A DNA stretch of 64,000 nt from Candidatus Latescibacterota bacterium (lineage in GTDB: Bacteria > Latescibacterota > UBA2968 > SICM01): assembly GCA_965217865.1 (NCBI GenBank), contig CBDCJO010000002.1, forward strand, positions 5,024,001 to 5,088,000, read 5' to 3'. The notes beneath the pieces are model-generated. The model ran no database searches and was not told where the DNA came from. It saw only the letters and a program-made list of their open reading frames with translations. Shown here one piece after another: positions 1 through 19,651 of the stretch; within the stretch, counting starts at the first letter, position 1; every line of letters starts with the position of its first letter. A program made the position numbers and the translations under genes.

Positions 1-425
1 TCCCGATCGGGAACGTGGGGACTGGGCCGCTCAACATCCTGGATATCACGTCGGGCAGCCCACAGGTTACGGTTTCGCAGACGAGTCTGATCATCTCTCC
101 CGGGGAGTCCCGATCCGTTACGGTTACTTACCGTCCGCAGACGAATCAGGCGCGATCGGGGAGCATCCGGATTACATCGAACGACTCCACGGTCATCGTT
201 CCCTGGATCGCAAAGGAACCTCTTGTAAAGATTGCTGATTTGACCGGGGACTTCGATGTGGATGGGGATGTGGATTTCGATGATTTCTTCCTTTTTGCCG
301 GGGTTTTCGGATCGCAAAGAGAAGATCCGGGTTTTGATTCCAGGTATGACCTGGACGACAGCGGGGGTGTCGGGTTTGACGACTTTTTCATTTTCGCCGC
401 TAATTTTGGGAGGGAGGAAAGTTAA
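1..425 (+). CDS. C-terminal part of a secreted protein: Ig-like (ASH/choice-of-anchor D-like) domain plus paired dockerin-like EF-hand repeats; 5' end outside the window
   Basis: Frame is open from the window start. NVGTGPLNI...ISPGESRSVTVTY...ITSND is Ig-like; it is followed by GDFDVDGDVDFDDFFLFA and DLDDSGGVGFDDFFIFA. Confidence 0.75.
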   Translation, partial: PIGNVGTGPLNILDITSGSPQVTVSQTSLIISPGESRSVTVTYRPQTNQARSGSIRITSNDSTVIVPWIAKEPLVKIADLTGDFDVDGDVDFDDFFLFAGVFGSQREDPGFDSRYDLDDSGGVGFDDFFIFAANFGREES

Positions 426-481
426 AAGCAGGCGGTTTAATTTCATGGCATACCGGCCATAATGACTGAGACCTTTTTCGC

Positions 482-510
482 TTGACGGCCCCTCCACGAT
501 TCTCTAACAT
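482..510 (+). promoter_or_regulatory. sigma70-type promoter for the GAF-PP2C gene
   Basis: TTGACG-N17-TAACAT. Confidence 0.5.
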
Positions 511-566
511 GAGGCGGAATTCGGAATCAGAAAAACGGGAGTACCATAGACAGAGGGAAAATAAGG

Positions 567-2093
567 GTGGCACGCACGGACCAAGACAAAACGAAACACG
601 GACCGGCTCCGGGCTCGATACGTCGAAAGACTCCCGACAGGCGAACCGAGGATTCCTTCACTATTGGGGGGTTCCAAGATCTCCTTCGTCCGGCGGAAGA
701 CCTGAGCTGGCTGAAGGAGATGATCGACAGCCAGCGCAATGCCCCGAAATCGAACGAACGGGGACTTCGGTGGGTGGTCTACGAGGATCAGGAAAAGGGA
801 GAACGGAGGTTCATGCGCGACCGCCGCCGGCTGGAAGATCGGAGAAGGCGGGGTTCTGCGATGTCGGCGCTGCTGAACGCCGGGATGTTGATCAACTCCT
901 CTCTTGAGTTCGACCAGGTGATCGCATCGGCCATCGAGGCCTTGTCTCCCGTCACGAGTGCAGAAGCGGGTTCGTTGATTCTCATCGACAAAGAGACCGA
1001 CGAACTCGTCATCGCCGAGGCGACCGGGCAGAAATCCGAAAGGGTTCGGGGTCTTCGTTTCAGAAAAGGACACGGGATTGCCGGTTGGGTCGCGGAAAAC
1101 GACCAGCCGCTAATCGTGCACGACGTACGAAGTGACCCCCGGTGGTTCGAGGGGATCGACCTCACTTCCGACTTCGAGACCTTTTCGATCATCTGCGTTC
1201 CGCTTCGAGCCCGTGAACGCCTCCTGGGCGTGGTGGAACTTTTGAATAAAAAGGGGGGCCAGAGGTTTGACGAATGGGACCTGAACATCCTTCAGGTTTT
1301 CGCGAACCAGGTGGGCATTGCGATCGATAACGCCCGACTCCATCAGGAAGCCCTTGAACAGAGACGCATCGAGACGGAGCTTTCTATGGCCAAACGTATC
1401 CAGGAAGGGCTTCTTCCCGAAACCCTGCCACAGCCAGAGGGGTTCCAGATGTCAGGGATGAGCGTGGCCTGCGAAGAGGTCGCCGGGGATTACTTCGACG
1501 CCATACCCCTGAAGGACGGGTGCATCGGCCTTGCGATCGCAGACGTGTCGGGAAAGGGGGTCCCGGCCGCGCTTTTGATGTCATCCCTCCGGACGGCCCT
1601 CCACGCCGAAGCACAAAGCGGCAATTCCCTTCCCGAGGTCCTTAACAAGGTCAGTGGGCTTCTTTACCGGGAGGGTTCGGGTATGTTTGCAACCTGCGTC
1701 TATTCGGTATTCGATCCCAAATCTTGCAAGCTGCGGATCGCTAATGCCGGACATAATTTCCCGCTCTTATTCCGGTCGGATGGCTCCTGCGAAAAACTGC
1801 CGAGTACAAGTTTTCCCCTGGGCCTTCTGCCCGAGGGGGTGAAATCGGTGAAGGACCAGGAGACGCCCCTGCATCCCGGGGATGTCCTGGTTTTTTTCAC
1901 CGATGGGGTCCTGGAGGCGTCGCGCGAGGACATGGAGCAGTTCGGGGAAGAACGCTTGGAGGAGCTGATCTCCAACAGCAGGGAACTCTCGGCCGACGAC
2001 CTCCGGAATCGGATTTACGAAGAGGTTCTGGACTTCATTGGAGATGCTCACCGGTCGGACGACATCACGTTGATGGTCCTGAAAGCGCTTTGA
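567..2093 (+). CDS. GAF domain plus SpoIIE/PP2C phosphatase (RsbU-like)
   Basis: GAF motifs (GHGIAGWVAE, SIICVPL, LLNKKGG, AIDNARL) and PP2C motifs (VAGDYFD, IADVSGKG, FFTDGV, DDITL). Confidence 0.9.
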   Translation: MARTDQDKTKHGPAPGSIRRKTPDRRTEDSFTIGGFQDLLRPAEDLSWLKEMIDSQRNAPKSNERGLRWVVYEDQEKGERRFMRDRRRLEDRRRRGSAMSALLNAGMLINSSLEFDQVIASAIEALSPVTSAEAGSLILIDKETDELVIAEATGQKSERVRGLRFRKGHGIAGWVAENDQPLIVHDVRSDPRWFEGIDLTSDFETFSIICVPLRARERLLGVVELLNKKGGQRFDEWDLNILQVFANQVGIAIDNARLHQEALEQRRIETELSMAKRIQEGLLPETLPQPEGFQMSGMSVACEEVAGDYFDAIPLKDGCIGLAIADVSGKGVPAALLMSSLRTALHAEAQSGNSLPEVLNKVSGLLYREGSGMFATCVYSVFDPKSCKLRIANAGHNFPLLFRSDGSCEKLPSTSFPLGLLPEGVKSVKDQETPLHPGDVLVFFTDGVLEASREDMEQFGEERLEELISNSRELSADDLRNRIYEEVLDFIGDAHRSDDITLMVLKAL

Positions 2094-2117
2094 GCCGGCG
2101 TATCACGGAATGCATAC

Positions 2118-2154
2118 AAAAAGGCCGACTGTCGCGTGTAACAGTCGGCCTTTT
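2118..2154. terminator. Bidirectional intrinsic terminator
   Basis: AAAAGGCCGACTGT-8nt-ACAGTCGGCCTTTT perfect stem with A/T tails on both sides. Confidence 0.85.
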
Positions 2155-2160
2155 ATGCCC

Positions 2161-2490
2161 TTGCCGGTAGGCAGCTGACCACAAAGTCCCCCCTCGATAG
2201 CCAGGGGGGTGGTGTGGCATCCCTGCTCTGCCCAAGACTTCCTTGTAGTGTTCCGTACATGGGGGCTGGTCGGAGAGACTTCCTCCCAGCGCCGCAGGGC
2301 AACAGGTTTGGCTATCGGGTCCAGGTTGGGTCCGGTGACCCGTTTTACTTCATCGGCAAATTTGAATGAGGCTTTAGTGTTTCTTTTCTAAGGGTTTGGA
2401 CTCTAGGAGCTGCTTTGCTTGCCCCATCAAGCGTCCCTAGAGTCGATTCCGTCCGTAAGGATGAAGCTGAAAGACAGGCCGCGATTCCTT
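2161..2490 (-). ncRNA. Candidate structured non-coding RNA, family not recognised
   Basis: About eight stems plus an 8-nt loop complementary to a distal segment. No credible ORF. Terminator lies directly downstream on the minus strand. Strand is inferred. Confidence 0.45.
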
Positions 2491-2497
2491 TAAGTAA

Positions 2498-3205
2498 ATG
2501 AATTACAATAACATGAGTGTGTTCGGGAAAATTAGGCGATGGTTTGAAAATGACCGATTCTTCGTCACAAGAAGGGTTCGAAGGCTTCGGATCCGATTCA
2601 AAATCGGTCTTTCAGCAACGATTTTTCTTGTAGGATGGTCCCTTGCTCCAATCTGGCTTCCGTTGGTCGCAGATCCGCTTGTTGCGGACTATGCCGGAAT
2701 GGTGACCGAAGCTGTGGTCGTAGAAGGATGGTTTGCTCTAGATATCAGGAAGGCCGAAGAGACTTCGCGTATCTACAACGGTCAACGGGTCTATGTCGTC
2801 GTGAATGAAAACGACGAGGATATCTACGGATTCGGACTGGATCGGCTCGGACAGTCCAAAACCAACCTTTTTCGTGCAGGGATCGATACGTCGAAGGCCT
2901 TCATGGTCCTGATTCCCGAAAGATCCAAGTCACCAGGTTACACCGCATTTAATGCGGACCGGGTGAGGGAGCGGCTTCTTCAGGATGGGATCCGGAGCTT
3001 CACCCTTGTCACAGATTCATTCCACAGCCAAAGATCAAGCCTGATTTACAATCGGGTCTTTAAGGGAACCGGGATCGTCCTGGACTGTTATCCCTCCCCC
3101 CAGGAATTCGATCGCACCAATTGGTGGCGTTATTCATCGGGAATTCAGTACCTGGTCAGGGAGTATTTAAAGTTGTGTTACTACCTGTTTCGAGGTTTTA
3201 ACTAA
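2498..3205 (+). CDS. YdcF/DUF218 (ElyC/SanA-like) membrane-anchored protein
   Basis: N-terminal TM segment, LVTDSFHSQRS motif, C-terminal WW...REYLKL; start codon uncertain. Confidence 0.75.
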   Translation: MNYNNMSVFGKIRRWFENDRFFVTRRVRRLRIRFKIGLSATIFLVGWSLAPIWLPLVADPLVADYAGMVTEAVVVEGWFALDIRKAEETSRIYNGQRVYVVVNENDEDIYGFGLDRLGQSKTNLFRAGIDTSKAFMVLIPERSKSPGYTAFNADRVRERLLQDGIRSFTLVTDSFHSQRSSLIYNRVFKGTGIVLDCYPSPQEFDRTNWWRYSSGIQYLVREYLKLCYYLFRGFN

Positions 3206-3263
3206 AGGGGTTGGGTACCTCCGGATTTCAGCCGGGATGGGTCCGGGAACTGTGGACCGATAT

Positions 3264-4655
3264 ATGGCATCTCAGGACCTTCATTTCCTGACCATCGCAG
3301 AGCTAGTGCCTTTGTTTCGGCGGGGAGAGGTTTCTCCCGTGGAGCTGACCGAGGCGGTCCTTGAACGAATCGATCGCCTGGACGGAGAACTGCGGTCCTA
3401 TATCACCGTGACCGAAGACCGGGCTCGCGTGGACGCAAAGAGCGCTGAGATCGCCCTCAGGGAGGGGAACGACCTCGGACCGCTTCACGGCATCCCCGTG
3501 GCATTGAAGGACCTTTGTGATACGGCTGGAATTCGGACGACTTCGGGGTCGAAGATCAGGGAGAACTTCGTCCCGACCACATCATCCGCTGTGGCCACGA
3601 AGCTCGCCCGGGCAGGGGCCGTGCTCCTGGGGAAGACGAATTTGGTCGAGTTCGCTTTCGGCCCTTATGGTCTGAACCCGCATTACGGCACACCGGCCAA
3701 CCCGTGGGATTTGGAGCGGGCTCCCGGGGGTTCGAGCAGCGGGTCGGGTGTCTCGGTCTCCACGGGCCTGGCCACTGCGGCCATTGGGACCGATACCGGG
3801 GGATCGGTACGGATTCCGTCGGCATTTTGCGGGATCGTCGGCTTGAAACCGACGGTTGGACGGGTGAGTACCGCCGGGATTACCCCCCTGAGCCGGACCC
3901 TGGACAGTGTCGGGCCGATGACAAGGTGCGTGGAAGACGCGGCCCTGGTCTACACGACGATCGCAGGACTGGATGGGGAGGAACCGGCACCTCAGTCCAG
4001 GGAGGGTGCGGAGGTCTTGAGGTCGTTGAAACGGGACGTGAAGGGGATGCGGACGGGCGTGGTACGGTCCCCCTTTTTTCAAAACGCTGAGGCCGATGTC
4101 GTGGCTTTGGTGGACCGCGCCGTTAAAGTCCTTGACGGCCTCGGCGTCCGAGTCGATGAGTTGGATTGGCCGGAGGCGGAATCGGTCGTGGAACAAGGGG
4201 AGGGTCTCCTGATCATGAAGGCGGAGGGTTTTGCGTTTCACCGTGAGAGCCTTGCCGGACAGCCTCAGGCCTTCGATCCGCGGGTCCGGGTCCGTCTTGA
4301 AGAAGGCGCAAAGATCCCCGCCCCGGACTATGTGCTGGCCCTGGAGCGACAGGCCAAGTTGAAAAGGTCTACTCAGCGTAGGCTCGAAGACTTGGACGCT
4401 GTTGTGGGGCCGACAGTGATCACACAAGCCCCGAGGGTCGGTGAAATTAGGGATGGACAACCGCCCAAGTTGACAACCCGGGTGGTGAACGTCCTGGGAC
4501 TCTGTTCGATTTCCGTTCCTTGCGGACTCACTCCGGAGGGGATGCCGGTGGGGCTCCAAATTATCGGAAAATCCTTCGACGAAAGTAAGATCCTCCGCCT
4601 GGCCTATGCCTATGAGCAGTCAACAGATTGGCACGTGCGTCATCCAATGCTATAA
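3264..4655 (+). CDS. Amidase signature family protein (GatA-like)
   Basis: GPLHGIPVALKD, PGGSSSGS, GTDTGGSVRIPS (Ser-cisSer-Lys triad motifs). Confidence 0.9.
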   Translation: MASQDLHFLTIAELVPLFRRGEVSPVELTEAVLERIDRLDGELRSYITVTEDRARVDAKSAEIALREGNDLGPLHGIPVALKDLCDTAGIRTTSGSKIRENFVPTTSSAVATKLARAGAVLLGKTNLVEFAFGPYGLNPHYGTPANPWDLERAPGGSSSGSGVSVSTGLATAAIGTDTGGSVRIPSAFCGIVGLKPTVGRVSTAGITPLSRTLDSVGPMTRCVEDAALVYTTIAGLDGEEPAPQSREGAEVLRSLKRDVKGMRTGVVRSPFFQNAEADVVALVDRAVKVLDGLGVRVDELDWPEAESVVEQGEGLLIMKAEGFAFHRESLAGQPQAFDPRVRVRLEEGAKIPAPDYVLALERQAKLKRSTQRRLEDLDAVVGPTVITQAPRVGEIRDGQPPKLTTRVVNVLGLCSISVPCGLTPEGMPVGLQIIGKSFDESKILRLAYAYEQSTDWHVRHPML

Positions 4656-4690
4656 TAATGAGGCATACAATCTGAACGATTGAGACTCGA

Positions 4691-5389
4691 ATGCTTTCTT
4701 TCATTTTCAAAGGAAGCCGGGATCGGGAGCAAACGGGAGGTGACGATCCACGTTTCCTAAAACAGCGTCAAATGATGGCTGAATCCCAGATATCCAGCCG
4801 CGGGATTTCGGATTCACGGGTGCTCAATGCCATGCGATCGGTCCCTCGCCACCTTTTCGTGCCGGAACATCTTCGCGATCAGGCTTATGACGACGGGGCC
4901 CTGCCGATTGGAGAAGGACAGACCATTTCCCAGCCGTATATCGTCGCGATTATGACTTCCCTCCTGGCCTTGAGAGGGCATGAGCGGGTTCTGGAAGTCG
5001 GAAGCGGATCGGGTTATCAGACGGCTATCCTTTCAATATTGGCCGGACAGGTTTACTCGATCGAGATTTTGGAAGAACTCTACCTCCGAGGAAAAAGATT
5101 ATTGGCTTCTCTGGGACACGAAAATGTCACGTTACGGAACGGGGATGGCTACTGGGGATGGGTTGAATACGCCCCCTTTGACGGCATCATCATCACAGCG
5201 GCTCCCGTCCAGGTGCCATATATCCTGCTGGATCAGTTGAAAGTAGGAGGCCGTCTTGTGGTTCCAGTTGGGGAAGCGGATCAGGAGCTTATGAAAGTCG
5301 TGAAGAAAGAGGACGGCGTTCATGAGGAAAAAGTGCTTCCCGTAAGATTCGTGCCGATGACAGGGGAAGTGAGGAAACGAGAGGGCTGA
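4691..5389 (+). CDS. pcm: Protein-L-isoaspartate O-methyltransferase
   Basis: VPRHLFV, GQTISQPY, VLEVGSGSGY, APFDGIIITAA, VRFVPM. Confidence 0.95.
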   Translation: MLSFIFKGSRDREQTGGDDPRFLKQRQMMAESQISSRGISDSRVLNAMRSVPRHLFVPEHLRDQAYDDGALPIGEGQTISQPYIVAIMTSLLALRGHERVLEVGSGSGYQTAILSILAGQVYSIEILEELYLRGKRLLASLGHENVTLRNGDGYWGWVEYAPFDGIIITAAPVQVPYILLDQLKVGGRLVVPVGEADQELMKVVKKEDGVHEEKVLPVRFVPMTGEVRKREG

Positions 5390-5414
5390 TGCCCGACTGC
5401 CCAGCCACTCCAGG

Positions 5415-5440
5415 GAATACAGAAGACAGAATACAGAAGA
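5415..5440. repeat. Short heptamer tandem array GAA(T/G)ACA
   Basis: GAATACA GAAGACA GAATACA GAAGA in the pcm-lptG intergenic region. Confidence 0.6.
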
Positions 5441-5495
5441 AGATCGAAATCAAGTGCTTTACTTCTAAATCCTCTATTCTTCGCGTGCCCTTCTT

Positions 5496-6566
5496 ATGCG
5501 CATTCTGAGTCGCTACATCATCCGGCGCTACGTTGTCAACCTGAGCATGGCCTTGACAGCCCTTGTCGCTATCTTCCTGGTGGTGGACTTGACCGACCGA
5601 TTGAGCGAATTTCTGGACCGCGACTTTGATACCCGAACCATTTTCGGTTTCTATCTATTTTATATTCCCTATATCATCATCCTCACACTCCCGATGGCCT
5701 CCCTCCTGTCCTGTCTGTTCGCGGTTGGAGATCTTTCCCGGCACCGGGAGTTAACTGCCATGAAGGCCGCGGGTGTTAGTTTGGGTCGCATCCTGGCACC
5801 TCTGTTCGGCGCGGCTTTCGTCCTGACCCTGATTGCCCTATTATTCAGCGACCTGGTTGTCCCCGGTGCCAACAGGCGCAGAGCGGAGATTGATCGCGGC
5901 GGTGCCCTGGAGATCCCTTTTTTCACCGTGAGGGAGAATCTTGTGTTGCTGGATGTGGACGGGCAAACCCTTTCGATCGGCCGGTATGAGGTGGGGACAA
6001 AGATCGGTCATGTTGTTATCCTGGATCGGTTCGAAGGCGAACGGCTTCAGAGCAGGATCACCGCCCGAACGATGCGCTGGGACGGCTACAGGTGGGAGTG
6101 GCAGGATGGAATCGACCGGGAGTTTGTGGGGGAGAGGGAAATGACCAGGCCGTTCGTGTCAAAGTTCCCCGAAGGGCTTACCCTACGCCCTGAAGACATC
6201 GAAAGGCCAAATCGCAAACCGGAGGAGATGAGCTACTCCGAACTCAGCAGACACATCGATCGAAGGGTCCTCAAAGGCATACAGGTCCGCAAGGAACGGG
6301 TCGAACTGAATCTCAAGCTGGCCTTTCCTTTTGCCCCCCTGGTCATGGTCCTGTTCGGTGCCCCGCTCATCTCTTCCCAATCCCATTCCGGCCGATGGGC
6401 GATCTTTGGAATCTGTCTGCTCCTCTCTTTCATCTATTATGGGGGAATTCGTGGGTGCCAGGCCATCGGTTGGAACGGTCTCCTTTCACCGGCCTTGTCG
6501 GCCTGGCTACCAAATGGGGTGTTCATCGGTGCCGGAGCCTTCCTTTTCAAAAGAGCGCATAAGTGA
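5496..6566 (+). CDS. lptG: LptF/LptG family LPS export permease (LptG-like)
   Basis: MRILSRYI start, ELTAMKAAGVS, 3+3 TM layout around a periplasmic beta domain, PEEMSYSEL, AWLPN. Confidence 0.8.
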   Translation: MRILSRYIIRRYVVNLSMALTALVAIFLVVDLTDRLSEFLDRDFDTRTIFGFYLFYIPYIIILTLPMASLLSCLFAVGDLSRHRELTAMKAAGVSLGRILAPLFGAAFVLTLIALLFSDLVVPGANRRRAEIDRGGALEIPFFTVRENLVLLDVDGQTLSIGRYEVGTKIGHVVILDRFEGERLQSRITARTMRWDGYRWEWQDGIDREFVGEREMTRPFVSKFPEGLTLRPEDIERPNRKPEEMSYSELSRHIDRRVLKGIQVRKERVELNLKLAFPFAPLVMVLFGAPLISSQSHSGRWAIFGICLLLSFIYYGGIRGCQAIGWNGLLSPALSAWLPNGVFIGAGAFLFKRAHK

Positions 6567-6612
6567 CGAGGAAATCCGTTCTACGGGGAGGATCCTGCGA
6601 GGGGAAAAGGAG

Positions 6613-8092
6613 ATGGATAAGGGAGACCTGAAATTCCTGGCTTTCGACCTCGGTGCGGAAAGCGGCCGAGGCGTGATCGGAGGATTTGATGGGAAGCGGC
6701 TCTCTCTCGAGGAGGTCCACCGTTTTTCGAACGGGGCGGTCCACCTCCCGGACGGCCTTCACTGGGATGTCTTGAGGCTGTTTGAGGAGATCAAACGAGG
6801 GATCGGATTATGCGTGAAACGTCACGGCCGGGGAATTTCCGCGATGGGGATCGACACGTGGGGGGTTGATTTCGCGTTGTTGGACTGCAGGGATGCATTG
6901 CTCGGGAACCCGCATCATTACCGAGACCCCCGGACGGATGGGATGCTCGAGGAGGCCTTTAAACGGGTTCCGAAACGGAAAATATTCGAAATGACCGGCA
7001 TCCAGTTTATGAAGGTCAACACGCTCTACCAGCTCGTCGCCATGTCCCTGGAGAAATCCCCGCTGCTCGAAGTTGCAGCTTCGCTGTTGACGATTCCGGA
7101 CCTGTTCAATTTCTGGTTGACCGGGCGTAAGGTCTGCGAGTTCACGAATGCCACCACAACCCAATTCTACGATCCGAGGCAGCGTGACTGGGCGCGGGAG
7201 CTTTTCAACCGCATGGCTTTGCCGACACGTATCCTCCAGCAGGTCGTCCAACCGGGAACCGTTCTCGGGCCCATCCTCCAAAAGGTGGGGGAGGAGACGG
7301 GAATGGGCGAAGTAACGGTCGTCGCCCCCGCCTGCCACGACACGGGTTCCGCCGTTGCGGCGGTACCGGCCGAAGTGAAGGATTATGTGTACATCAGTTC
7401 AGGGACATGGTCCATTTTGGGGGTCGAAGTCCCCGAACCCATCATTAGCGAGGCCGCTCTTGAATATAATTTCACGAATGAGGGGGGCGTTGGGGGAACT
7501 TTTCGCTTCCTGAAGAATATCATGGGGCTCTGGCTCGTTCAGGAGTGCCGCCGGGAATGGGGTCGCGGAGGGAGCGACTTGAGTTACGATGACCTAACGC
7601 GAACGGCCTCGGAAGCTTCTGCTTTCGGCCCCGTGGTCGAACCCGATGACGACAGCTTCATTGGGATGGGGGATATGCCGGGGAGGATCGTGAAGTTTTG
7701 TTCGAAGACGGGCCAGAAGCCTCCGGAAGGCGTGGGCGGAATCGTGAGGTGCGCCCTTGAGAGTCTGGCCTTGAAATATCGATATGTGCTGGAGCGCCTT
7801 GAGGAGATTCTGCAGAGAAGACTGGAGGTCATTCATGTCGTGGGGGGGGGGAGGAAAAAACCGCCTTTTATGCCAGCTCACGGCAGATGTGACCGGGAGG
7901 CCTGTGTTGACAGGTCCGGTGGAGGCCACGGCGATCGGGAATATCCTTGTTCAGGCCATGGCGACCGGCCACCTCGACTCTCTTGCCGACGCTCGATCCG
8001 TCGTCAGGCGATCGTTTGATGTTGAAACTTATGAGCCTAAAAGGGATGAGCGGTGGGACGAGACCTACGAACGGTTTGTTCAGTTGTTGTAG
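6613..8092 (+). pseudogene. rhaB: Rhamnulokinase (FGGY kinase) split by a +1 frameshift
   Basis: AFDLGAESGR, GIDTWGVDF, HDTGSAV, ISSGTWS, NIMGLW. Frame breaks at G10-AGG-A6 (7842-7860); removing one G or one A restores VGGGxKNRLLCQLTAD...GPVEATAIGN. Confidence 0.85.
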
Positions 8093-8230
8093 ACCCGAGG
8101 AGTGACAAACTTCGGCTCGATGATCCTTCCGAACAACAAAACCCTCCCGGAACGAAGAAAGGCGGAAAGCCTAGCAGCAACCCTTGAATCAGGCGCCAGA
8201 TGGTTTTCCGCCTTTTTGATGTTCGTCAGC

Positions 8231-9463
8231 CTACGCCCTTTTCCGTTTCATCGCCTGAAAATCGGTGAACTTCCCTTCGATGATTTCCTGTGTAATCAGG
8301 AATTCCTTGATGTTGGATTTGGAGGGGATTTCGAACATAAGGTCGACCATGATATTTTCCAGGACGGATCGAAGCCCTCGCGCACCGGTCCCTTTTTTTA
8401 TGGCGAGTTCCACGACCTTGTTTAGGGCATCGGGTGTAAATTCCAGCTTGACATCATCCATTTCAAAAAGCCTCTGGTACTGTTTGGTTGTGGCATTCCG
8501 CGGCTTCGTCAGGATGTCCATCATGGCCTGCGTATCCAGGTCATCCATGGTGCTTACGATTGGAAGCCGGCCCACCATTTCGGGAATCAATCCATAATGG
8601 ATGAGGTCGTCGGGTTGAATGTGAACGAGAATCTCCCCCACTTTTCCGTCGGCCGATTTTTCGACTTCGGCCCCGAACCCGATCGATTTCTTCCCGATTC
8701 GATTTTTAATAATATCCTCGATGCCCTCGAAGGCCCCACCGCATATGAAGAGGATATTCTTGGTGTTTATCTGGACGAGGGGCTGTTCCGGATGCTTCCT
8801 TCCGCCCTTGGGGGGGACACCTGATGTGGTACCTTCAAGGATTTTGAGCAGTTCCTGTTGCACACCCTCCCCCGATACGTCGCGGGTAATCGATGGGGTG
8901 CTGGACTTGCGGGATATCTTATCGATCTCATCGATATAAATAATCCCCCGCTCGGACTTGGAAACGTCGTAGTCGGCGGCATGGAGAAGCCTTACGAGGA
9001 TGTTCTCAACGTCTTCCCCGACATAGCCGGCCTCGGTGAGGACGGTGGCATCGACGATCGTAAAGGGAAGTTGAAGGATTCTGGCGAGGGTCTCCGCAAG
9101 GAAGGTCTTCCCGGTGCCGGTGGGTCCCACCAGGAGGATGTTGCTCTTGGTCAGCTCAACATCGTTGTCGACAACTTGAATCCGTTTGTAATGGTTGTAG
9201 ACGGCAACAGCCAGTGTCCTCTTCGCCCGTTCCTGACCGATGACGTGTTCATCAAGCCGCTTCTTGATTTCAATCGGCTTCAGAAGGGCACCCGTCTGGG
9301 GGAGGGTTCGTTCCCGCTTGTCTTCGACGAGGATGTCGTTGCAGAGCCGGACGCATTCATTGCAAATGTGAACGTATGGTCCGGTGATTATTTTTTCGAC
9401 TTGGCCGGGACCCTTTCCGCAGAATGAACATTTAGGCTCTATGCGCGATCGGCCTTTGAGCAT
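8231..9463 (-). CDS. clpX: ATP-dependent Clp protease ATP-binding subunit
   Basis: CSFCGK...ICNECV zinc finger, [24 protein letters not shown] loop, GARGLR. Confidence 0.97.
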
Positions 9464-9606
9464 TCAGGTTGTCCTCGCTAAAATTGTGACTCTGGAAGAA
9501 GCCTCGTTATAACTTAAACGGTCGGGTAGCGCCGGGGTTCCGGCGCAGATCTATGGAAAATGATAAATGAAACAAGAACCCGGAGTCAAGCAGAATTTAA
9601 TTTCCC

Positions 9607-10332
9607 CTATGGGGTACCGTTGGCCCCGATCTTCACAAAACCTTCGGCGAGTTTACAATCGGGAAGGCTTCCGATGATACGGGCTTCGATTCCCCGGAAG
9701 CGTGCACAGGCGTCATACATCCAGGGGAGGTCCGGCTGGGACTTGAGTTGTCGTAAGGCATCCATCTTACGGTCGAAGACTTTCTCTATGTCCACGTAGG
9801 TGTCCGGGAGAAATTGCGAAACAGGGGCCGTGCCCATGGTCGTCTCATAACAAAAAATGTCGGGTTTGGGGGTGGGGGAGTGTTCGGTCCGGATTCCGGG
9901 TGAGCCGGAATAGATACAGGCCCATAAAACGTTCTCCGCCGTGGTCACGTGGTCTGGATGTAAAATATCCTTTCGCCAATGCACCAGGACGACTTCCGGA
10001 CGGCGAAGCCGGATCGTGTCGATGATCCTCAATTTTCGGTCTTCGTCGATGATAATCGGGCTATCCCCAAAATCCAGACACTCGATCGTGGCACCCAGGG
10101 TGCCAGCTGCGTGTTCGATTTCGGATTTTCTGATCGCCTTCACTTCATCGAGGGGGATCGTTTTTCTCTCGGCGTAGATGGCGGGGGACTCACAGCGTTC
10201 ACCATACGTTAAATCGATGACGTGTACGCTCCCCCCGATATCGCTGTAGCGGGCGATTGCCCCCCCGGCACGGGAACAGAAATCGGCAGCGTGGGCGCTA
10301 AAGACGAGTACGCGTGCGTTGGGCGTGATCAT
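9607..10332 (-). CDS. PIG-L/LmbE family metalloenzyme, GalB (4-oxalomesaconate hydratase)-like
   Basis: SAHAADFCSRAGGAIA, TYGERCES and HPDH motifs. Confidence 0.75.
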   Translation of the reverse strand: MITPNARVLVFSAHAADFCSRAGGAIARYSDIGGSVHVIDLTYGERCESPAIYAERKTIPLDEVKAIRKSEIEHAAGTLGATIECLDFGDSPIIIDEDRKLRIIDTIRLRRPEVVLVHWRKDILHPDHVTTAENVLWACIYSGSPGIRTEHSPTPKPDIFCYETTMGTAPVSQFLPDTYVDIEKVFDRKMDALRQLKSQPDLPWMYDACARFRGIEARIIGSLPDCKLAEGFVKIGANGTP

Positions 10333-10811
10333 GCGGATTTCCCCTGAAGGAGTCTTTCATCGTTTTGAGGTACTTTCCCAGTATTCGTGTAACGACGGGT
10401 CTCCCGTTCCATTTCCCGCCAGGCGTCTTCGGTTTTGTGTTCGTAACCCGCAAGGTGCAGGATGCCGTGTATCGCCAGGTGCAGAACCTCTTTCTGCAGG
10501 GATCGCTTTCGTTTAATGGCCTGGCTTCGGGCCTGGGGCAGGGAGATGTAAATTTCCCCGAGGATACCTTCATCAGAAGGGCCGCGCAGATCGAAAGAAA
10601 GGACGTTTGTCGGCGCGTCGATCCCACGGTAAGACCGATTCAGGCGGAGCAACTCTTCGTCGCCGGTTAGAATCACGTTGACCCCTCCGCCTCGAAGGCC
10701 ATGCTGCAGCGCCGCCCTGTGCGCAATGCGGCGAAGTCCGTCCAGGTCGAGTCGGGGGGCCTTCGAACCCTCTTCGACGAGAAGGACCCTGAGGGTTAAC
10801 CGCTCAGACAC
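10329..10811 (-). CDS. ybeY: rRNA maturation endoribonuclease YbeY
   Basis: LNRSYRG.D.PTNVLSF, LGEIYIS, HGILHLAGYEH. Confidence 0.93.
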   Translation of the reverse strand: MSERLTLRVLLVEEGSKAPRLDLDGLRRIAHRAALQHGLRGGGVNVILTGDEELLRLNRSYRGIDAPTNVLSFDLRGPSDEGILGEIYISLPQARSQAIKRKRSLQKEVLHLAIHGILHLAGYEHKTEDAWREMERETRRYTNTGKVPQNDERLLQGKSA

Positions 10812-13086
10812 GGGGGGACTCCTTCTGGCGCTGCGAGGGATATGCCACCCGGGTGTGCATCATGCCTCTCAAAACCGGCAGGAATGCCTGTTCGATCTTG
10901 TGGAGGTCCCCAAGGGTCAGGGCACACTCGTTTAATTCCCCGGATGTAAACTTCCCTTCGATGATACTTCGAACCATTCCCTTAACCCGGCTGGGGGTCC
11001 GCTCCTTTAAGGACCGGACAGCGCTTTCGACCGAATCCGCAAGCATGATGATTCCCGCCTCCTTGGTCTGGGGCTTTGGACCCGGATACCGAAAATCTTC
11101 ATCGCGAATCTCTTCGCCACGCTCCAGAGCTCGATTTTTGAAATACGCGATCTCGCCTGTTCCCTGATGTTGGGGAATGATGTCGATGATGATCTTCGGC
11201 AGCCCCTCTTGCTCGGCCATCCGTATACCTTCTCGTACGTGTGAGATGAGGACCAGGGCGCTCATCCTCGGCTGGAGCTCATCGTGGGGATTTTCCCCAG
11301 ATTGGTTCTCGACGAAGTATTGTGGCCTCACCATCTTTCCGATGTCGTGATAGTAACAGCCGACCCGCGCAAGCAGGGCGTTGGCGTCGATCGCCTCCGC
11401 TGCCGTTTCAGACAGGTTCGCGACGATGACGCTGTGGGAGTAACTCCCGGGGGCCCGTGTGGCCAGGTTACGGAGAAGGGGCCGGTTCAGGTCGGACAGC
11501 TCAAGCAGGGTGATGGGGGTCACGATGCCGAACAGGTTCTCGAACATCGGAGAGAGGCCGAGGGTCAGGACCGGTGTGAGGATTCCCATCACGAGTCCGG
11601 GGATCAAATCCCGGGCAAGCGGGCCGAAAATGTCGGATGAACTGGAGTAGGTGAACCAGATGCCTTTGATAACCAGAATGACCAAGACGTATGATATGGT
11701 GAGGTAGATGATAGAGTAGTTGAAGTGCTGACGATTTCTTACCCGTCTGACCGAGTAACATCCAACCATGCCGCAGAGGGATGAGACGATCGTCGCGTGA
11801 AGGTCGTTCAAAGCAACCCCGCACAAAATAGCCGACATGACCGCCACAGTGATGCCCAATTCGATGTCGAGAAGGAGGGCCACCAGCATGGCGGATAGGG
11901 CGACCGGGACATACAGGGACGACACGTCGGCTGTCCCCGACAGGTAGGATGCGACCAGGGTGGGAATTATAAGAAGGATGCCGAAGAGGACCAGAATCTC
12001 GGTGCGACGGTAGAGTTCGTTTCGGAATGCGTAGAGGTATAGGAGGATCAGGCCAAGGACGAGTGAGGAGAGCAAAAAAGAGGCAAGGATCTGAAGATAT
12101 CCGGCATAGGGGGATTCACGGTGCCTAAGATATTTTGCTTCTGAAAGAGACCTGAGGATGTCTACGTGTTCAGAGGTCACCCTTTCGTGGGCATCGATGA
12201 TTTTCTGGTTTTCGAGAACGACATTTCGATTTTGAGAAACGGACTGGGCTGCGACTTCCCGACGGCGTTCGGTTTCGGCGGAATCGAATGTCAGGTTGGG
12301 AGAGATGAAGGCCTGAATCAGTTCATATAATGCCCGGGCAAGGGCAGGATGCGCCTCCGCCCAGCGTTCCTGGATCAGGTCCGGCAACACCTTATCTGAG
12401 ATTTCACCTGTGTCGTAGAAATGGCTCGAGGAGGCCAGGTTTTCTTCCTCATCCTTCCGCATCGTCACCCAGGTTGCCTTTTTCCCTTCGAAGGCCTGCT
12501 TGTCCGAAACGATTCCGCCGGTATACAAGTCGGTAAGAATTCTATAAGCCAGATTCTTAATTTCCTTTAACTGTTCTTCCGAAATGTATCCCTGCCCTTC
12601 GATGGGATCCGCTCCGATTAGAATGCGGAATGCGGGATCAGATATGGCCCGAAGGTTTCCTTCCCGGTTGAACCCGTCTCCAAGAAGAGAGTCCGCTAAG
12701 GAACTCCCCGAACGGCCAAGGAGGTCTTTGAACAGCGTGTCGAGGGAATCGACCTGTGCTCCACCCACCGCGGAGCTGAAGACAAGAAGAGGGGGGATGC
12801 GCCTGCGGGCGTTGGCCTGTTCCCGCTCGAAAACCGATGGACTTTTTTTGACCCAAAAAGTGAATGGGGTGACGATCCGTTCCCGGGCGACGGTACCCTC
12901 TCGCAGGTCACCGAATTCAGTTGCTTTTCGATGTCCCATCAGATAGGTCAGGACACACACAGTCGCCGCAACAACGCCCCACCGCAGGACTTGGGCAGGG
13001 CGGAAGATCTGAGAAGGCCCTTTGCCGACCCCTTTTGGCAGCCCCTTTTTTACTTGCTTTCTAAGGGCGAGAAATTTTGAAGGCAT
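10804..13086 (-). CDS. pgpH: 7TM-HD (HDIG) phosphohydrolase, PgpH-type cyclic-di-AMP phosphodiesterase
   Basis: Extracellular domain, 7 TM, LLELSDLN.PLL, APGSYSHS, YYHDIGK, FRYPGPKP, MLADSVE; lies between phoH and ybeY. Confidence 0.85.
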   Translation of the reverse strand: MPSKFLALRKQVKKGLPKGVGKGPSQIFRPAQVLRWGVVAATVCVLTYLMGHRKATEFGDLREGTVARERIVTPFTFWVKKSPSVFEREQANARRRIPPLLVFSSAVGGAQVDSLDTLFKDLLGRSGSSLADSLLGDGFNREGNLRAISDPAFRILIGADPIEGQGYISEEQLKEIKNLAYRILTDLYTGGIVSDKQAFEGKKATWVTMRKDEEENLASSSHFYDTGEISDKVLPDLIQERWAEAHPALARALYELIQAFISPNLTFDSAETERRREVAAQSVSQNRNVVLENQKIIDAHERVTSEHVDILRSLSEAKYLRHRESPYAGYLQILASFLLSSLVLGLILLYLYAFRNELYRRTEILVLFGILLIIPTLVASYLSGTADVSSLYVPVALSAMLVALLLDIELGITVAVMSAILCGVALNDLHATIVSSLCGMVGCYSVRRVRNRQHFNYSIIYLTISYVLVILVIKGIWFTYSSSSDIFGPLARDLIPGLVMGILTPVLTLGLSPMFENLFGIVTPITLLELSDLNRPLLRNLATRAPGSYSHSVIVANLSETAAEAIDANALLARVGCYYHDIGKMVRPQYFVENQSGENPHDELQPRMSALVLISHVREGIRMAEQEGLPKIIIDIIPQHQGTGEIAYFKNRALERGEEIRDEDFRYPGPKPQTKEAGIIMLADSVESAVRSLKERTPSRVKGMVRSIIEGKFTSGELNECALTLGDLHKIEQAFLPVLRGMMHTRVAYPSQRQKESPRV

Positions 13087-13125
13087 GTCATCCCCCCCAG
13101 ACCCCCGGAAGGTAAAACATCCAAC

Positions 13126-14106
13126 TCACATTTCACTTTCCGCAGCGTTAATTCCAATCTCTTTTTCATAGATCTCGTAAGCCTTGATGATCTGGCGAAC
13201 GAGTGGATGTCTCACCACATCCCGATCCGTCAAGTAGACGAATTCGATATCCTCGACCTGTCCCAGGATGGTCTGGATCTGAACGAGGCCGGATTGACTG
13301 GAAGACGGGAGATCGACCTGAGTGATGTCACCGGTGATGATGGCCTTTGCGTTTACGCCGAGGCGAGTCAGGAACATTTTCATCTGTCGAATACTCGTAT
13401 TCTGTGCCTCGTCCAGGATCACATATGCGTTGTTCAGGGTGCGTCCACGCATAAAGGCCAGGGGGACGATCTCCAGTGTACGTGAATCGGTGAGCTGGCG
13501 CATTCGGTCTTGAGGAACCATGTCCTGGAGCGCATCGTACAGCGGCCGGAGATACGGGTCGACTTTCTCCTGGATGTCGCCGGGGAGATATCCCAGGCTC
13601 TCCCCGGCTTCCACGGCCGGTCTGGTGAGTACAATATGATCGATCTCCCGACGTTTCAAGGCGGCCACCGCTGCCCCAACGGCCAGGTAGGTCTTGCCGG
13701 TACCCGCTGGTCCGATGCAAAATACGATATCCCGACTCTCCATGGCGGTCACATATCGGCCTTGGCCGGGCGAACGAGGTCGAATGGAGCCCTTTCGGGT
13801 GTTCAACAATACCTTTGCAGAATGCGGGGACTCGCCCATCTCCTTGAGGACGTCCTGCCCGGACCGGAGGAGATAACTCAGGTCGATCTCAACTCCGCCC
13901 CGGAGATGAGATACGACGTCGATGAGCACCTCACAAGCTTTTTCGACGTGGCCGGGCTCTCCTTCCACGAGGATGGATTCCCCCCGCGCTACAAGGTCGA
14001 CGCCGTATCGTTTCTCAAAGGCGATGAGATTGGCATCGTTGTGTCCATAAAGATGGAGTGGGTCGATCCCGTCGATCTCCACCCTTTGCGATATGCGTTG
14101 ACCCAA
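13126..14106 (-). CDS. phoH: PhoH family ATPase
   Basis: GPAGTGKTYLA, RPAVEAGE.LG.LPGD, FMRGRTL, LDEAQN, DVVRHPLV. Confidence 0.93.
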   Translation of the reverse strand: MGQRISQRVEIDGIDPLHLYGHNDANLIAFEKRYGVDLVARGESILVEGEPGHVEKACEVLIDVVSHLRGGVEIDLSYLLRSGQDVLKEMGESPHSAKVLLNTRKGSIRPRSPGQGRYVTAMESRDIVFCIGPAGTGKTYLAVGAAVAALKRREIDHIVLTRPAVEAGESLGYLPGDIQEKVDPYLRPLYDALQDMVPQDRMRQLTDSRTLEIVPLAFMRGRTLNNAYVILDEAQNTSIRQMKMFLTRLGVNAKAIITGDITQVDLPSSSQSGLVQIQTILGQVEDIEFVYLTDRDVVRHPLVRQIIKAYEIYEKEIGINAAESEM

Positions 14107-14174
14107 GCCTTGTGTCTTACTCCTTCCTGAATATCCCGCCCCCGCCGTTCTCCGAGCTTTCGGATCCTGTGCGT

Positions 14175-14217
14175 AAAAGAAAAAGCCCCCTTCCTCAAAG
14201 ATGAGAGGCCGAGAGCT
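14175..14217 (-). terminator. Intrinsic terminator or attenuator upstream of phoH
   Basis: Minus strand AGCTCTC-GG-CCTC-loop-GAGG-AA-GGGGGCT followed by TTTTCTTTT. Confidence 0.6.
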
Positions 14218-14299
14218 ATCCTATCTTTCAAAAATCAACGATTTTTCATCATTTCGGTGGCCCCTGGGTCATAGAAACGGGCTTATTAAACACAGTGTT

Positions 14300-14328
14300 A
14301 TACTAACATATCCCTCAGAAGGTGTCAA
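14300..14328 (-). promoter_or_regulatory. sigma70-type promoter between aspS and phoH
   Basis: TTGACA-N17-TAGTAT with extended -10 TG. Confidence 0.65.
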
Positions 14329-14352
14329 GGGGAAAAACGACCCGAAAGCGAC

Positions 14353-16128
14353 CTAAAGGATCTTCAATCCCAACTCCTGGAGCTGAGCGGGATCCACCCC
14401 GGAGGGTGCGTCGTCCATCAGGGAGACGGCGTTGTTCGTCTTCGGAAAGGCGATCACCTCCCTGATGGAACGCACACCCGCCAACAAGGAGACCATTCGG
14501 TCAAATCCGAAGGCAATCCCTCCGTGTGGAGGTGCTCCATATTCGAAGGCCTCAAGCAAGAACCCGAATTTCCGCTCCGCTTCATCGTGGGATATGCCGA
14601 GCAGATTGAACATTCTGTTCTGAACGTCCCGCCGGTATATCCGGATGCTTCCTCCCGCGATTTCGTTTCCGTTGAGGACCAGGTCGTAGGCGCGAGCTCG
14701 AACAGACGAAGGGTCGGACTCCATCTTCTCAAGGTCCTCTTCAACGGGAGCGGTGAAGGGATGGTGACAGGCCACATATCGTTTCTCCGTAGGGTTATAC
14801 TCGACCAGGGGAAATCGAACAACCCACAACGGGTTCCACACACGACCATCCAAGAGGCCTAAATCCCTCCCCAACCGGAGTCGGAGGTCGCAGAGCGTCG
14901 ACGCAACGAGAGCGGGTTTATCGGCCACGAAGAGGAGGAGGTCGCCGGGTTGGGCATTCATGCGCTCCGCCAGGCTCGTCTTGACAGCGGTTGGAAAGAA
15001 CTTGACGATTGACGATTCCAGACCCTTTTCGGTGACCTTAATCCAGGCCAGGCCCTTTGCCCCCAAATTGGTGGAGAAGGCAACCAGATCGTCGATCTGT
15101 TTGCGTGAGAGAGAGGCCTGACCCGTTGCGTTGATCCCTTTGACCCGTCCCCCTTCCTCTACGGCGTTCTTGAAAACCTGGAATTCGCTTTCGGAGGCCA
15201 GGTCGCTGATGTCTACGATCTCCAAACCGAATCGTGTGTCAGGTTTATCGGTACCGTAACGGTCGATGGCCTCCTGATACGTCATGCGCGGGAAAGGGAG
15301 GGAGGGTTGGTATCCGATCGTTTCCTTGAAAATGTGGGCTGTGAGTCCCTCCGCCATGCCAAGGACATCATCCTCTTCGACAAAGGACATCTCGATGTCG
15401 ATCTGAGTAAATTCCGGCTGACGATCCGAACGGAGATCCTCGTCTCGGAAACATTTGACGATCTGGAAATATTTCTCTAAACCCGCGACCATAAGGAGTT
15501 GCTTGTAAGTCTGAGGGGATTGTGGGAGTGCGTAAAAGTTACCCGGGCTTACCCGGCTTGGGACCAGATAGTCCCTGGCCCCTTCGGGTGTGCTCTTCAT
15601 CAGGAAAGGGGTTTCCACCTCGATGAATCCCTGTTGGTACAGGTGGCTCCGGGTTGCCTGATAGGCCCGATGGCGCAACCGGAGGTTCGCGAGCATGGAA
15701 GGCGTTCGGAGGTCCAGATAACGGTATTTGAGACGAAGTTCTTCGCTCGTCTCCTCGGCGGAATCGATTTGAAAAGGGGGTGTCTTGGCCTCATTCAGAA
15801 TTCTGAGATCTTGACAAAGCACGTCGATCGTGCCGGTGCTTAGTTTCAGGTTCTCCATTCCCGGAGGCCTCATTTCCACCAGGCCGCTCACTGCGATCAC
15901 ATATTCGGATCGGATGGATTCCGCCTTTTGATGCATTTCGGTGTTAACGTCGGGCTTGAAGACAACCTGCGTTTTTCCCTCGCGATCCCGGAGGTCGACA
16001 AAGATGACCCCACCGTGGTCCCGTCTTTTTGACACCCAACCCATCAAGGTGACGGATTTTCCCAAGTCCTCCTCACGAAGTTCCCCGCAATTGACAGTTC
16101 GTTTCCATCCGGACATCGGTTCAGGCAT
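14353..16128 (-). CDS. aspS: Aspartate--tRNA ligase, probably non-discriminating
   Basis: RRDHGGVIFVDLRD, EGARDYLVPSR, LPQSPQ, FRDEDLR.DRQPEFTQ, PPHGG.AFG.DR. The His in RRDHGG and Gly in RPPG fit the ND type. Alternative start at 16143. Confidence 0.95.
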   Translation of the reverse strand: MPEPMSGWKRTVNCGELREEDLGKSVTLMGWVSKRRDHGGVIFVDLRDREGKTQVVFKPDVNTEMHQKAESIRSEYVIAVSGLVEMRPPGMENLKLSTGTIDVLCQDLRILNEAKTPPFQIDSAEETSEELRLKYRYLDLRTPSMLANLRLRHRAYQATRSHLYQQGFIEVETPFLMKSTPEGARDYLVPSRVSPGNFYALPQSPQTYKQLLMVAGLEKYFQIVKCFRDEDLRSDRQPEFTQIDIEMSFVEEDDVLGMAEGLTAHIFKETIGYQPSLPFPRMTYQEAIDRYGTDKPDTRFGLEIVDISDLASESEFQVFKNAVEEGGRVKGINATGQASLSRKQIDDLVAFSTNLGAKGLAWIKVTEKGLESSIVKFFPTAVKTSLAERMNAQPGDLLLFVADKPALVASTLCDLRLRLGRDLGLLDGRVWNPLWVVRFPLVEYNPTEKRYVACHHPFTAPVEEDLEKMESDPSSVRARAYDLVLNGNEIAGGSIRIYRRDVQNRMFNLLGISHDEAERKFGFLLEAFEYGAPPHGGIAFGFDRMVSLLAGVRSIREVIAFPKTNNAVSLMDDAPSGVDPAQLQELGLKIL

Positions 16129-16139
16129 AGTCGTTTCCT

Positions 16140-17429: not shown

Positions 17430-17598
17430 GTTCTTCAGAACTCAAAATGTCCCTAAGTAATGGACTTACCATAAAATACGATAGTGAGGCTGATCAATCA
17501 ATATAAAAAATCTATCGCGAATGAGCCCGTGCGGGTTGGAGCGCTCTAAAAAGGTCAACCGCAAAAGTCGGATCCCGAGTCTTTGGCTCAGGTTTTTT

Positions 17599-17614
17599 TG
17601 GCATCAGGTTTGCA
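17599..17614 (+). promoter_or_regulatory. Putative sigma54 (-24/-12) promoter
   Basis: TGGCATCAGGTTTGCA matches TGGCAC-N5-TTGCW with exact GG-N10-GC spacing. Confidence 0.6.
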
Positions 17615-17729
17615 AATTATTAACCCCCGAGGATGCGCAGGATTACAAGAACCCGTCCCCACAAACGAATTGTATAGACCACCGATTTCTTAGATGGCCA
17701 AATCTTTCAAACCCGGAAAGCGTTCTGAA

Positions 17730-19580: not shown

Positions 19581-19651
19581 CTGAAAAGAGGGGAAGATTT
19601 TGATGAAACCCAAAGTCCAAATCATAACCAGATGGTTTTCCCAAACGAAAG

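Follow-up and report, generated by a model that had tools for sequence, protein, structure and literature searches.

The window is a 64,000-nucleotide stretch of a Latescibacterota genome (G000 below), and all positions are given in its numbering. Between a gene whose product has Pfam GAF and SpoIIE domains (567-2093, plus strand) and a DUF218 gene (2498-3205, plus strand) lies an uncatalogued, conserved non-coding RNA gene on the minus strand, at about 2344-2118 (Table 1). It converges on the GAF-SpoIIE gene, and the two have in common a bidirectional intrinsic terminator that is 86% conserved and is kept in two other genomes, G001 and G002, and in two metagenome loci, L055 and L041. This terminator is absent from the terminator-scan output, yet it is real by sequence, as the original prediction of a terminator directly after the RNA had it; the scan does report a terminator-like stem at 2327-2342 on the plus strand. 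The RNA contains no conserved ORF, and a coding role was rejected since the reading frames that begin at the internal AUG differ among the homologues. With a conserved terminator, no conserved ORF and no Rfam family, the proposed free-standing minus-strand RNA stands. Its proposed size of ~200-380 nt agrees with the ~225 nt predicted here at the lower end; the upper size is unsupported, as the stems at 2399-2461 precede the promoter. We note that the 9-bp perfect stem at 2399-2444, upstream of the RNA promoter, has a single genomic copy, is absent from the homologue loci and may be part of the upstream region of the DUF218 gene.

Table 1. Features of the RNA locus (window numbering) and of the type III elements (numbering of their own loci)
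Feature	Position	Strand	Remarks
Bidirectional intrinsic terminator	2118-2154	both	10-bp stem 2123-2132/2141-2150, flanking A-run and T-run
Predicted non-coding transcript, ~225 nt	about 2118-2344	-	inferred start 6-7 nt past the -10 box; runs to the U-run of the terminator
Conserved 3' block GCUGCC-N-ACCGGCAAGGGC	2157-2175	-	18/19 positions invariant
Complementary arms	2161-2168/2352-2359		7 Watson-Crick + 1 G-U on plus; that pair is A.C on minus
Hairpin with loop GGCUAUCG (2195-2202)	2188-2209	-	longer lower stem to about 2177-2219
Stem of that hairpin	2188-2194/2203-2209		7 bp
Loop pairing	2195-2202/2310-2317		8/8 complementary
CsrA-type site 2, GCAGGGAUGC	2217-2226	-	within invariant 18-nt block, 4/4 homologues
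Helix	2221-2226/2294-2299		complementarity present in window
CsrA-type site 1, ACAAGGAAGU (ACAGGGAAGU in three homologues)	2237-2246	-	resembles flagellin Shine-Dalgarno site ACAAGGAGG
Hairpin, 3' strand includes first half of site 1	2241-2262	-	one two-sided change, A-U to G-C
Variable-length hairpin, GCUGG/CCAGC base	2265-2290	-	13 nt shorter in window than in G001
UUGCCC and GCGGC, predicted 5' strands of closing helices	2291-2302	-	candidate partners: GGCAA 2161-2165 or GGGCAG 2228-2233 (UUGCCC); GCUGC 2171-2175 (GCGGC)
CGAUAGCC, 5' strand of predicted long-range loop-pairing helix	2310-2317	-	invariant in 4/4 homologues
5' hairpin GGGUC/GACCC	2328-2341	-	4/4 homologues, loop varies
Further stems	2328-2332/2337-2341, 2399-2407/2436-2444, 2417-2421/2428-2432, 2452-2454/2459-2461		all present
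Predicted sigma-28 -10 box GCCGATGA	2350-2357	-	overlaps 2352-2359; TGCCGAT invariant 4/4
Predicted sigma-28 (FliA) -35 box TAAAG	2372-2376	-	window, L055, L041; TCAAG in G001
Type III element, L254 (G106)	about 960-1050	-	second hairpin doubles as terminator
Type III element, L245 (G057)	about 1490-1590	-	second hairpin doubles as terminator

The suggestion that the RNA belongs to no known class withstood the Rfam search. At the gathering score there is no match in the window; at E up to 10 the six matches in 2000-2700 are not credible, and at E up to 5 none in three homologue loci falls on the RNA. RNase P RNA, tmRNA and SRP RNA, which the original prediction had set aside, are indeed excluded, each lying elsewhere in G000 (ARAGORN finds none in the window). 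6S RNA (RF00013) gives no match at E up to 10, and the predicted folds are branched, with no long rod and central bubble. Known riboswitches were rejected on the Rfam result, the terminator that directly follows on the minus strand and the varying plus-strand neighbours; a likeness to cobalamin or c-di-GMP-II riboswitch motifs is unsupported by Rfam. The Csr/Rsm families give no match at the gathering score or at E up to 5-10. Elsewhere, RF00013 has no match in 40 genomes of the class (G000 and 39 relatives), and the gap between zapA and what we take from its translation to be rny measures only about 60-85 nt (L179, L181, L182), too short for 6S. Searches of the open-access literature returned no published description of the RNA, and PMC13443453 gave nothing that bears on it.

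One marine RNA run (X1) contains a 200-nt contig that matches 2172-2368 at ~94% identity and depth 8.1, and nothing else in 1900-2700. Its upstream end overshoots the predicted start by about 24 nt, and its variant sequence breaks an end pair of the 8-bp helix described below. Since X1 also covers coding regions within 1-20000, in pieces of 151-198 nt at depth 2-3.8, the contig is not evidence of a discrete transcript.

Homologues and conserved structure

There are four distinct homologues: the window, G001, L055 and L041. BLAST against 61 genomes gives matches in G000 and in G001, which represents another genus of the same family and is 75% identical over the RNA core; in G002 only the terminator is matched. 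Three of the 58 matches of a metagenome pattern scan are true homologues (L055, L041 and a copy identical to G001), the other 55 being chance, and none of 60 matches in a viral scan is homologous. A pattern scan of genome contigs returned only a G001-like record; its gap was set to 80-110, against 79 in the window, so short members could escape it. A model of the four sequences (R1) found only its own training genomes among 132 genomes of the class and 151 of the phylum, under strict filters with 14-16 candidates scored per genome, and it has no match in G002 either at the syntenic site or genome-wide. The RNA is restricted to one family and single-copy in each genome, with homologues across two genera, so that the expected conservation in related genomes was found. 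Identity between the window and G001 is 72% over the RNA, 71% over the coding end next to it and 47% in the upstream DNA, which puts the RNA on a par with the protein gene beside it in conservation.

G001 and L041 keep the arrangement of the window, in which the RNA and the SpoIIE gene converge on a shared bidirectional terminator. The gene on the far side varies: DUF218 in the window, dehydrogenase-like in G001 and L055, and unrelated DNA in L041. The SpoIIE orthologue is itself family-restricted, so synteny leads to no further copies. In G001 the RNA and its promoter are flanked by 10-bp direct repeats GGGCGCAAAA (L002:1469-1478 and 1717-1726); G002 has one copy (L003:1530-1545), and the RNA is missing exactly between the repeat positions. 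Because two genera have the RNA at the same position, the G002 state reads better as a deletion, and on this sequence comparison G002 most simply appears to have lost the RNA by deletion between the repeats.

Every complementarity of the original prediction is found in the window, including the tandem GA/GA mismatch in 2265-2290; pairing within 2231-2263 is limited to its base, 4-5 pairs. The most unusual of these, a hairpin whose whole 8-nt loop is exactly complementary to 2310-2317, is confirmed and rare by chance: when 2161-2490 is dinucleotide-shuffled, a 7-bp hairpin with an 8-nt perfect complement of its loop elsewhere turns up in 5 of 3000 sequences (75 and 245 of 3000 for 5-bp and 4-bp stems). 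Other elements survive in part. The arms of the proposed closing helix are complementary, but the helix as such is not supported, its 5' arm 2352-2359 being the predicted sigma-28 -10 box. The helix 2221-2226/2294-2299, thought to close a multibranch domain, pairs in the window and is lost in the homologues, where CCCUGC becomes CCCCGU or GCCCGU. The further stems are all present; those at 2399-2461 are unconserved and lie upstream of the predicted promoter, and 2390-2500 has 47% identity in a forced alignment and folds no better than shuffles (z -0.04, 94/200). Compared with dinucleotide-shuffled controls, all of 2150-2500 likewise folds no better (minus strand z -0.90, 22/100; plus strand z -1.53, 7/100), whereas the core 2157-2346 does so modestly on the minus strand (z -2.07, 6/200).

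A structure drawn by hand across the four homologues has 56 pairs, of which 4 show two-sided changes, and pairing holds in 94.1% of its cells, support that is favourable but biased because the structure was drawn from the same four sequences. The local hairpins (the 5' one, the variable one, the stem under GGCUAUCG and GYGGY/GCUGC) have one- or two-sided changes and G-U pairs on the minus strand, and the bias to G-U rather than A-C in the homologue stems supports that strand. The GYGGY/GCUGC pairing is preserved through two one-sided C>U changes, and two further one-sided changes preserve pairs of the hairpin 2265-2290; in the predicted folds the partner of UUGCCC is ambiguous between its two candidates. 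The GGCUAUCG loop is invariant though its stem varies, and the lower stem has two two-sided changes.

For the pseudoknot or switch that had been proposed the outcome is mixed. The 8-bp CGAUAGCC/GGCUAUCG complementarity is kept in all four homologues, also while the L041 stem around the loop changes, but a covariation check of 2195-2202 against 2310-2317 yields none, the helix being invariant in all four. RNAalifold prefers these 8 bp as a nested helix that replaces the hairpin, and single-sequence and consensus folding gave no single agreed secondary structure. The predicted partners of the invariant block GGGCAGAGCAGGGAUGCC differ from homologue to homologue, which suggests, as far as the folding models go, that it is the sequence of the block that is kept and not its pairing.

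Promoter, CsrA-type sites and flagellar context

All four homologues have T(A/C)AAG-N14-GCCGAT ahead of the RNA, at a fixed spacing and with a spacer sequence that drifts. We take this to be the sigma-28 consensus and checked it against flagellin genes of the lineage: TAAAG-N14/15-GCCGAT lies upstream of all seven that could be parsed (from eight loci; L139 is unparsed). A matrix made from these seven promoters gives the homologue promoters 16.5, 21.5 and 22.1 bits and ranks the RNA site 19th of the 183 sites above 13 bits in G000. The plain motif, with 35 sites in G000, is not enriched at this spacing, so the evidence for the promoter is its conservation at fixed spacing. Its placement makes the 5' arm of the closing helix a -10 box and predicts a ~225-nt transcript from about 2344. 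Two other strong sigma-28 motifs in G000 have no long ORF directly downstream (C2:2130660, plus strand, and C2:2884790, minus strand); the latter precedes a flagellin promoter by about 380 nt.

Exactly two CANGGANG motifs occur in each of the four homologues, at the same places, as ACARGGAAGU and GCAGGGAUGC, and the GGA-to-GGA period in the window is 20 nt. The original prediction had neither these sites nor the promoter. Each RNA has 5-9 GGA in total, two of them in these sites. CsrA prefers a GGA in a loop; in the predicted folds site 1 lies in a stem, and site 2 is paired into a long rod in G001, L055 and L041. In flagellin leaders of the lineage a hairpin site comes first, about 50 nt upstream, and ACAAGGAGG then covers the ribosome-binding site; this order is reversed in the RNA, and the leader of the G001 flagellin L140 contains a 10-mer, GCAGGGATGC, identical to site 2. 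When 30,000 random 200-nt segments of G000 were drawn, 0.25% had at least two CANGGANG motifs. That genome has 128 paired sites, and a sigma-28 motif lies at most 260 nt upstream of only two, the RNA and one flagellin gene; about 0.1 such combinations are expected by arithmetic from the 35 motif sites. For comparison, the SELEX consensus for CsrA is RUACARGGAUGU, CsrB has 22 GGA (PMC7652899), and the Campylobacter jejuni flaA leader has CANGGANG hexaloops at 21-nt spacing, with 18 nt as the optimum (PMC4894983). As a separate observation, the long leader of one flagellin orthologue has in all three genomes (L136, L137, L138) an extra AAGGAGGT, placed about 165 nt ahead of the start; after it come a TTG-NNN-TTC-TGA mini-frame, which is conserved, and a hairpin.

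G001 has the complete set, flgK-flgL-fliW-csrA and fliA together with the RNA and flagellins. G000 (96% complete) has no csrA match, and no ORF of the G001 flgA-to-csrA stretch has a match there; fliA is over the cut-off in both genomes, and in G000 it looks intact, as do five flagellin-like genes. The early flagellar cluster of G000 (L142, C2:2185000-2204999) is broken relative to G001 and to G061, a genome of another family discussed below: fliI is truncated and runs into the 3' part of flgE; fliJ, fliK and flgD are missing; fliR is fused to a split flhA; IS elements lie inside; and no fliG was seen between fliF and fliH. The loss of csrA may therefore be real, and both CsrA-type sites persist nonetheless. 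G002, which is without the RNA, has no fliA or csrA match. In G061 the early cluster is intact, yet csrA has no match there either.

Elements of similar layout occur in sister families of the class. One, picked up in G042 by a motif search, is ORF-less and has a sigma-28 promoter, a pair of sites with a 20-nt period and a terminator; it folds, terminator included, with z -5.43. Motif-free BLAST from this element found relatives in G050, G040, G081 and G061 (5 of 41 genomes, counting G042). These type II elements (L248-L252) are about 200-230 nt long and follow genes that we take, from their translations, to be birA-coaX-like. All five keep a 9-10-bp closing helix, GCUUGUAUGU/CAUACAAG, and a site 2 in the form of a GC-ARGGAN-GC hexaloop in which N varies; site 1 fits CANGGANG in three of five, and the promoter fits the search expression fully in two and is degenerate in the rest. 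Type III, in G106 and G057, is likewise ORF-less and about 85 nt long, with a sigma-28-like promoter and two ACAGGGAUGU hairpin loops. Rfam has no match in six loci of these sister elements. In the window, G001 and L055 the type II model matches the two-site block, at E 1.7-1.8 only; R1 has no match to type II, and model R2 returns its five training genomes and one match at E 0.044. A csrA match was obtained in 7 of the 9 genomes that carry such an RNA, compared with 42 of 132 class-wide, a count in which kin are not independent and three finds came from a motif-based search; of seven carriers tested for FliA, six pass the cut-off and G042 has a partial match. Wider pattern searches gave mostly chance matches in coding regions, and only those with a -35 box were taken further. 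Two side finds are a sigma-28-like promoter and two CsrA-type sites that lead a conserved 55-59-aa ORF beginning MIYRVES or MINRIES (L255-L257 in G122, G033 and G123; L243 in G086), and five weak model matches at a period of about 125 nt in G036 (L189:2145-2662), which point to a tandem repeat array.

Interpretation and relation to known systems

On balance, the RNA is probably a sigma-28-driven decoy of CsrA in a FliW-type lineage. When sigma-28 switches on the late flagellar genes the RNA would be made alongside them; it would bind one CsrA dimer through two CANGGANG sites patterned on flagellin mRNA leaders, and this titration would help FliW to release flagellin translation; the helices around the sites, and the 8-bp pairing of the loop, would lend stability or gate access to the sites. 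In favour of this are the promoter motif shared with flagellin genes at a spacing fixed in all four homologues; the paired sites, whose 20-nt period is near both the flaA spacing and the optimum; the joint presence of fliW, csrA and fliA in G001 and the joint absence of fliA, csrA and the RNA from G002; and the type II and III elements, which have the same logic of promoter, sites and terminator, together with the csrA matches in 7 of 9 carrier genomes. It is weakened by the missing csrA in G000 and G061 and the broken flagellar cluster of G000, by predicted folds that partly hide sites CsrA would prefer in loops, and by the small number of sites (two, with 5-9 GGA against 22 in CsrB). The 19th rank of the promoter and its unenriched plain motif also count against it, as do the X1 contig that overruns the predicted start, the X1 pieces on coding regions, and a cross-match between type I, the RNA described here, and type II that is no better than E 1.7-1.8. 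In G000 the RNA may be an orphan from a motile ancestor or have a CsrA-independent role.

Some of the same facts fit a sigma-28-dependent structured RNA with another main job, such as mRNA base-pairing or binding of another protein or a ligand through its pseudoknotted core, in which CsrA binding would be accessory or coincidental. We think this rather unlikely, while giving weight to the large invariant blocks outside both sites, to a fold more elaborate than a two-site decoy needs (type III manages without one), to the retention of the RNA with fliA in G000 and G061, both without a csrA match, and to the known sigma-28 base-pairing sRNAs (PMC10578931). Against it, an exact-match scan with five conserved blocks gave best perfect complements of 11-16 nt in G000, none of them at a flagellar gene start, and the core held in common with type II is the two-site block only. 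That the element is functionless today, either as a flagellin-type leader left behind by the loss of its gene or as a mobile insert, is improbable: conservation at the level of a protein gene across genera and two-sided changes in stems would not be expected, the position is the same in two genera, each genome has a single copy and no transposase lies nearby, the model has no match in the eight flagellin loci, and the site order is the reverse of that in flagellin leaders. It would account for the promoter and both site motifs being common to those leaders, for the decay of flagellar genes in G000, and for the direct repeats GGGCGCAAAA of G001 with a single copy in G002 that resembles an empty site.

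Two further readings alter the extent or the strand of the RNA. A longer RNA that begins upstream of 2368 and is closed by a 5'-3' helix that takes in the GCCGAU box, for instance a divergent 6S-like RNA or sigma-factor decoy, would agree with the span of the X1 contig, with the ability of UGCCG and CGGCA to pair in all four homologues, and with a class in which a search of 40 genomes, G000 among them, turned up no 6S and the zapA-rny gap leaves no room for it. We hold it to be quite improbable, given the failure to match 6S at E up to 10, the branched fold, a distribution in one family only whereas 6S is missing class-wide, and a -35 box that is kept at promoter spacing, which pairing leaves unexplained. 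Least probable, and very much so, is a plus-strand element that regulates the downstream gene in cis, as a leader or riboswitch; the downstream genes differ among the homologues, the G-U bias favours the minus strand and Rfam finds no riboswitch, against which stand only the slightly better folding of 2150-2500 on the plus strand and the terminator-like stem at 2327-2342.

If the RNA is indeed a CsrA decoy, RNA control of CsrA extends past the Gammaproteobacteria, and a structured RNA family absent from Rfam is added. More tentatively, and as a possibility that we would not yet expect to hold in full, the class may have a sigma-28-driven CsrA-decoy system that coexists with FliW and comes in three architectures, pseudoknotted (225 nt), post-birA-coaX (200-230 nt) and minimal (85 nt), the present type being gated by a loop-to-bulge pseudoknot and alternative helices that hide or expose both sites. 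According to a 2020 review (PMC7652899), whether any species has FliW and sRNAs working together on CsrA "remains to be determined", and the occurrence of fliW shows an anti-correlation with the system driving Csr sRNAs. The joint presence of flgK-flgL-fliW-csrA, fliA and the RNA makes this question testable in G001.

Among known RNAs, 6S RNA (RF00013) resembles the present one in its length of about 200 nt and in ends able to pair, with no 6S detected elsewhere in the genome, and differs in the model match that is lacking here, the branched fold and the restriction to one family. The sigma-28-linked non-coding RNAs of the Escherichia coli flagellar regulon, UhpU, MotR, FliX and FlgO, are UTR-derived (PMC10578931), whereas ours is a stand-alone gene, with CsrA-type sites and a predicted pseudoknot. 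The dual-function sRNAs McaS and GadY, with at least two GGA motifs, are like it in having few CsrA sites and possibly another role (PMC7652899), but it has no homology to them and the exact-match scan found no clear base-pairing target for it. CsrB/CsrC and the Rsm sRNAs of Gammaproteobacteria are also free-standing and terminator-ended and carry CsrA consensus sites; they have many of these and are under BarA-UvrY control (PMC7652899), whereas the present RNA has two sites, a predicted sigma-28 promoter, a non-gammaproteobacterial host of fliW lineage and no sequence or model match in Rfam. By its few sites and the absence of a model match, the RNA appears to lie outside the CsrB/RsmZ families. 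The leader of the C. jejuni flaA mRNA, part of the CsrA-FliW network, is closer: it too belongs to a FliW-type lineage, has two CANGGANG-like sites about 20 nt apart, is made with the late flagellar genes and is a proposed CsrA titrator (PMC4894983). It differs in being an mRNA, the present RNA being ORF-less and branched, about 225 nt long, with its own terminator and with sites that are not both in predicted apical loops. By this analogy we lean, if only somewhat, to an RNA that works most like a CsrA-titrating flaA leader turned stand-alone gene.
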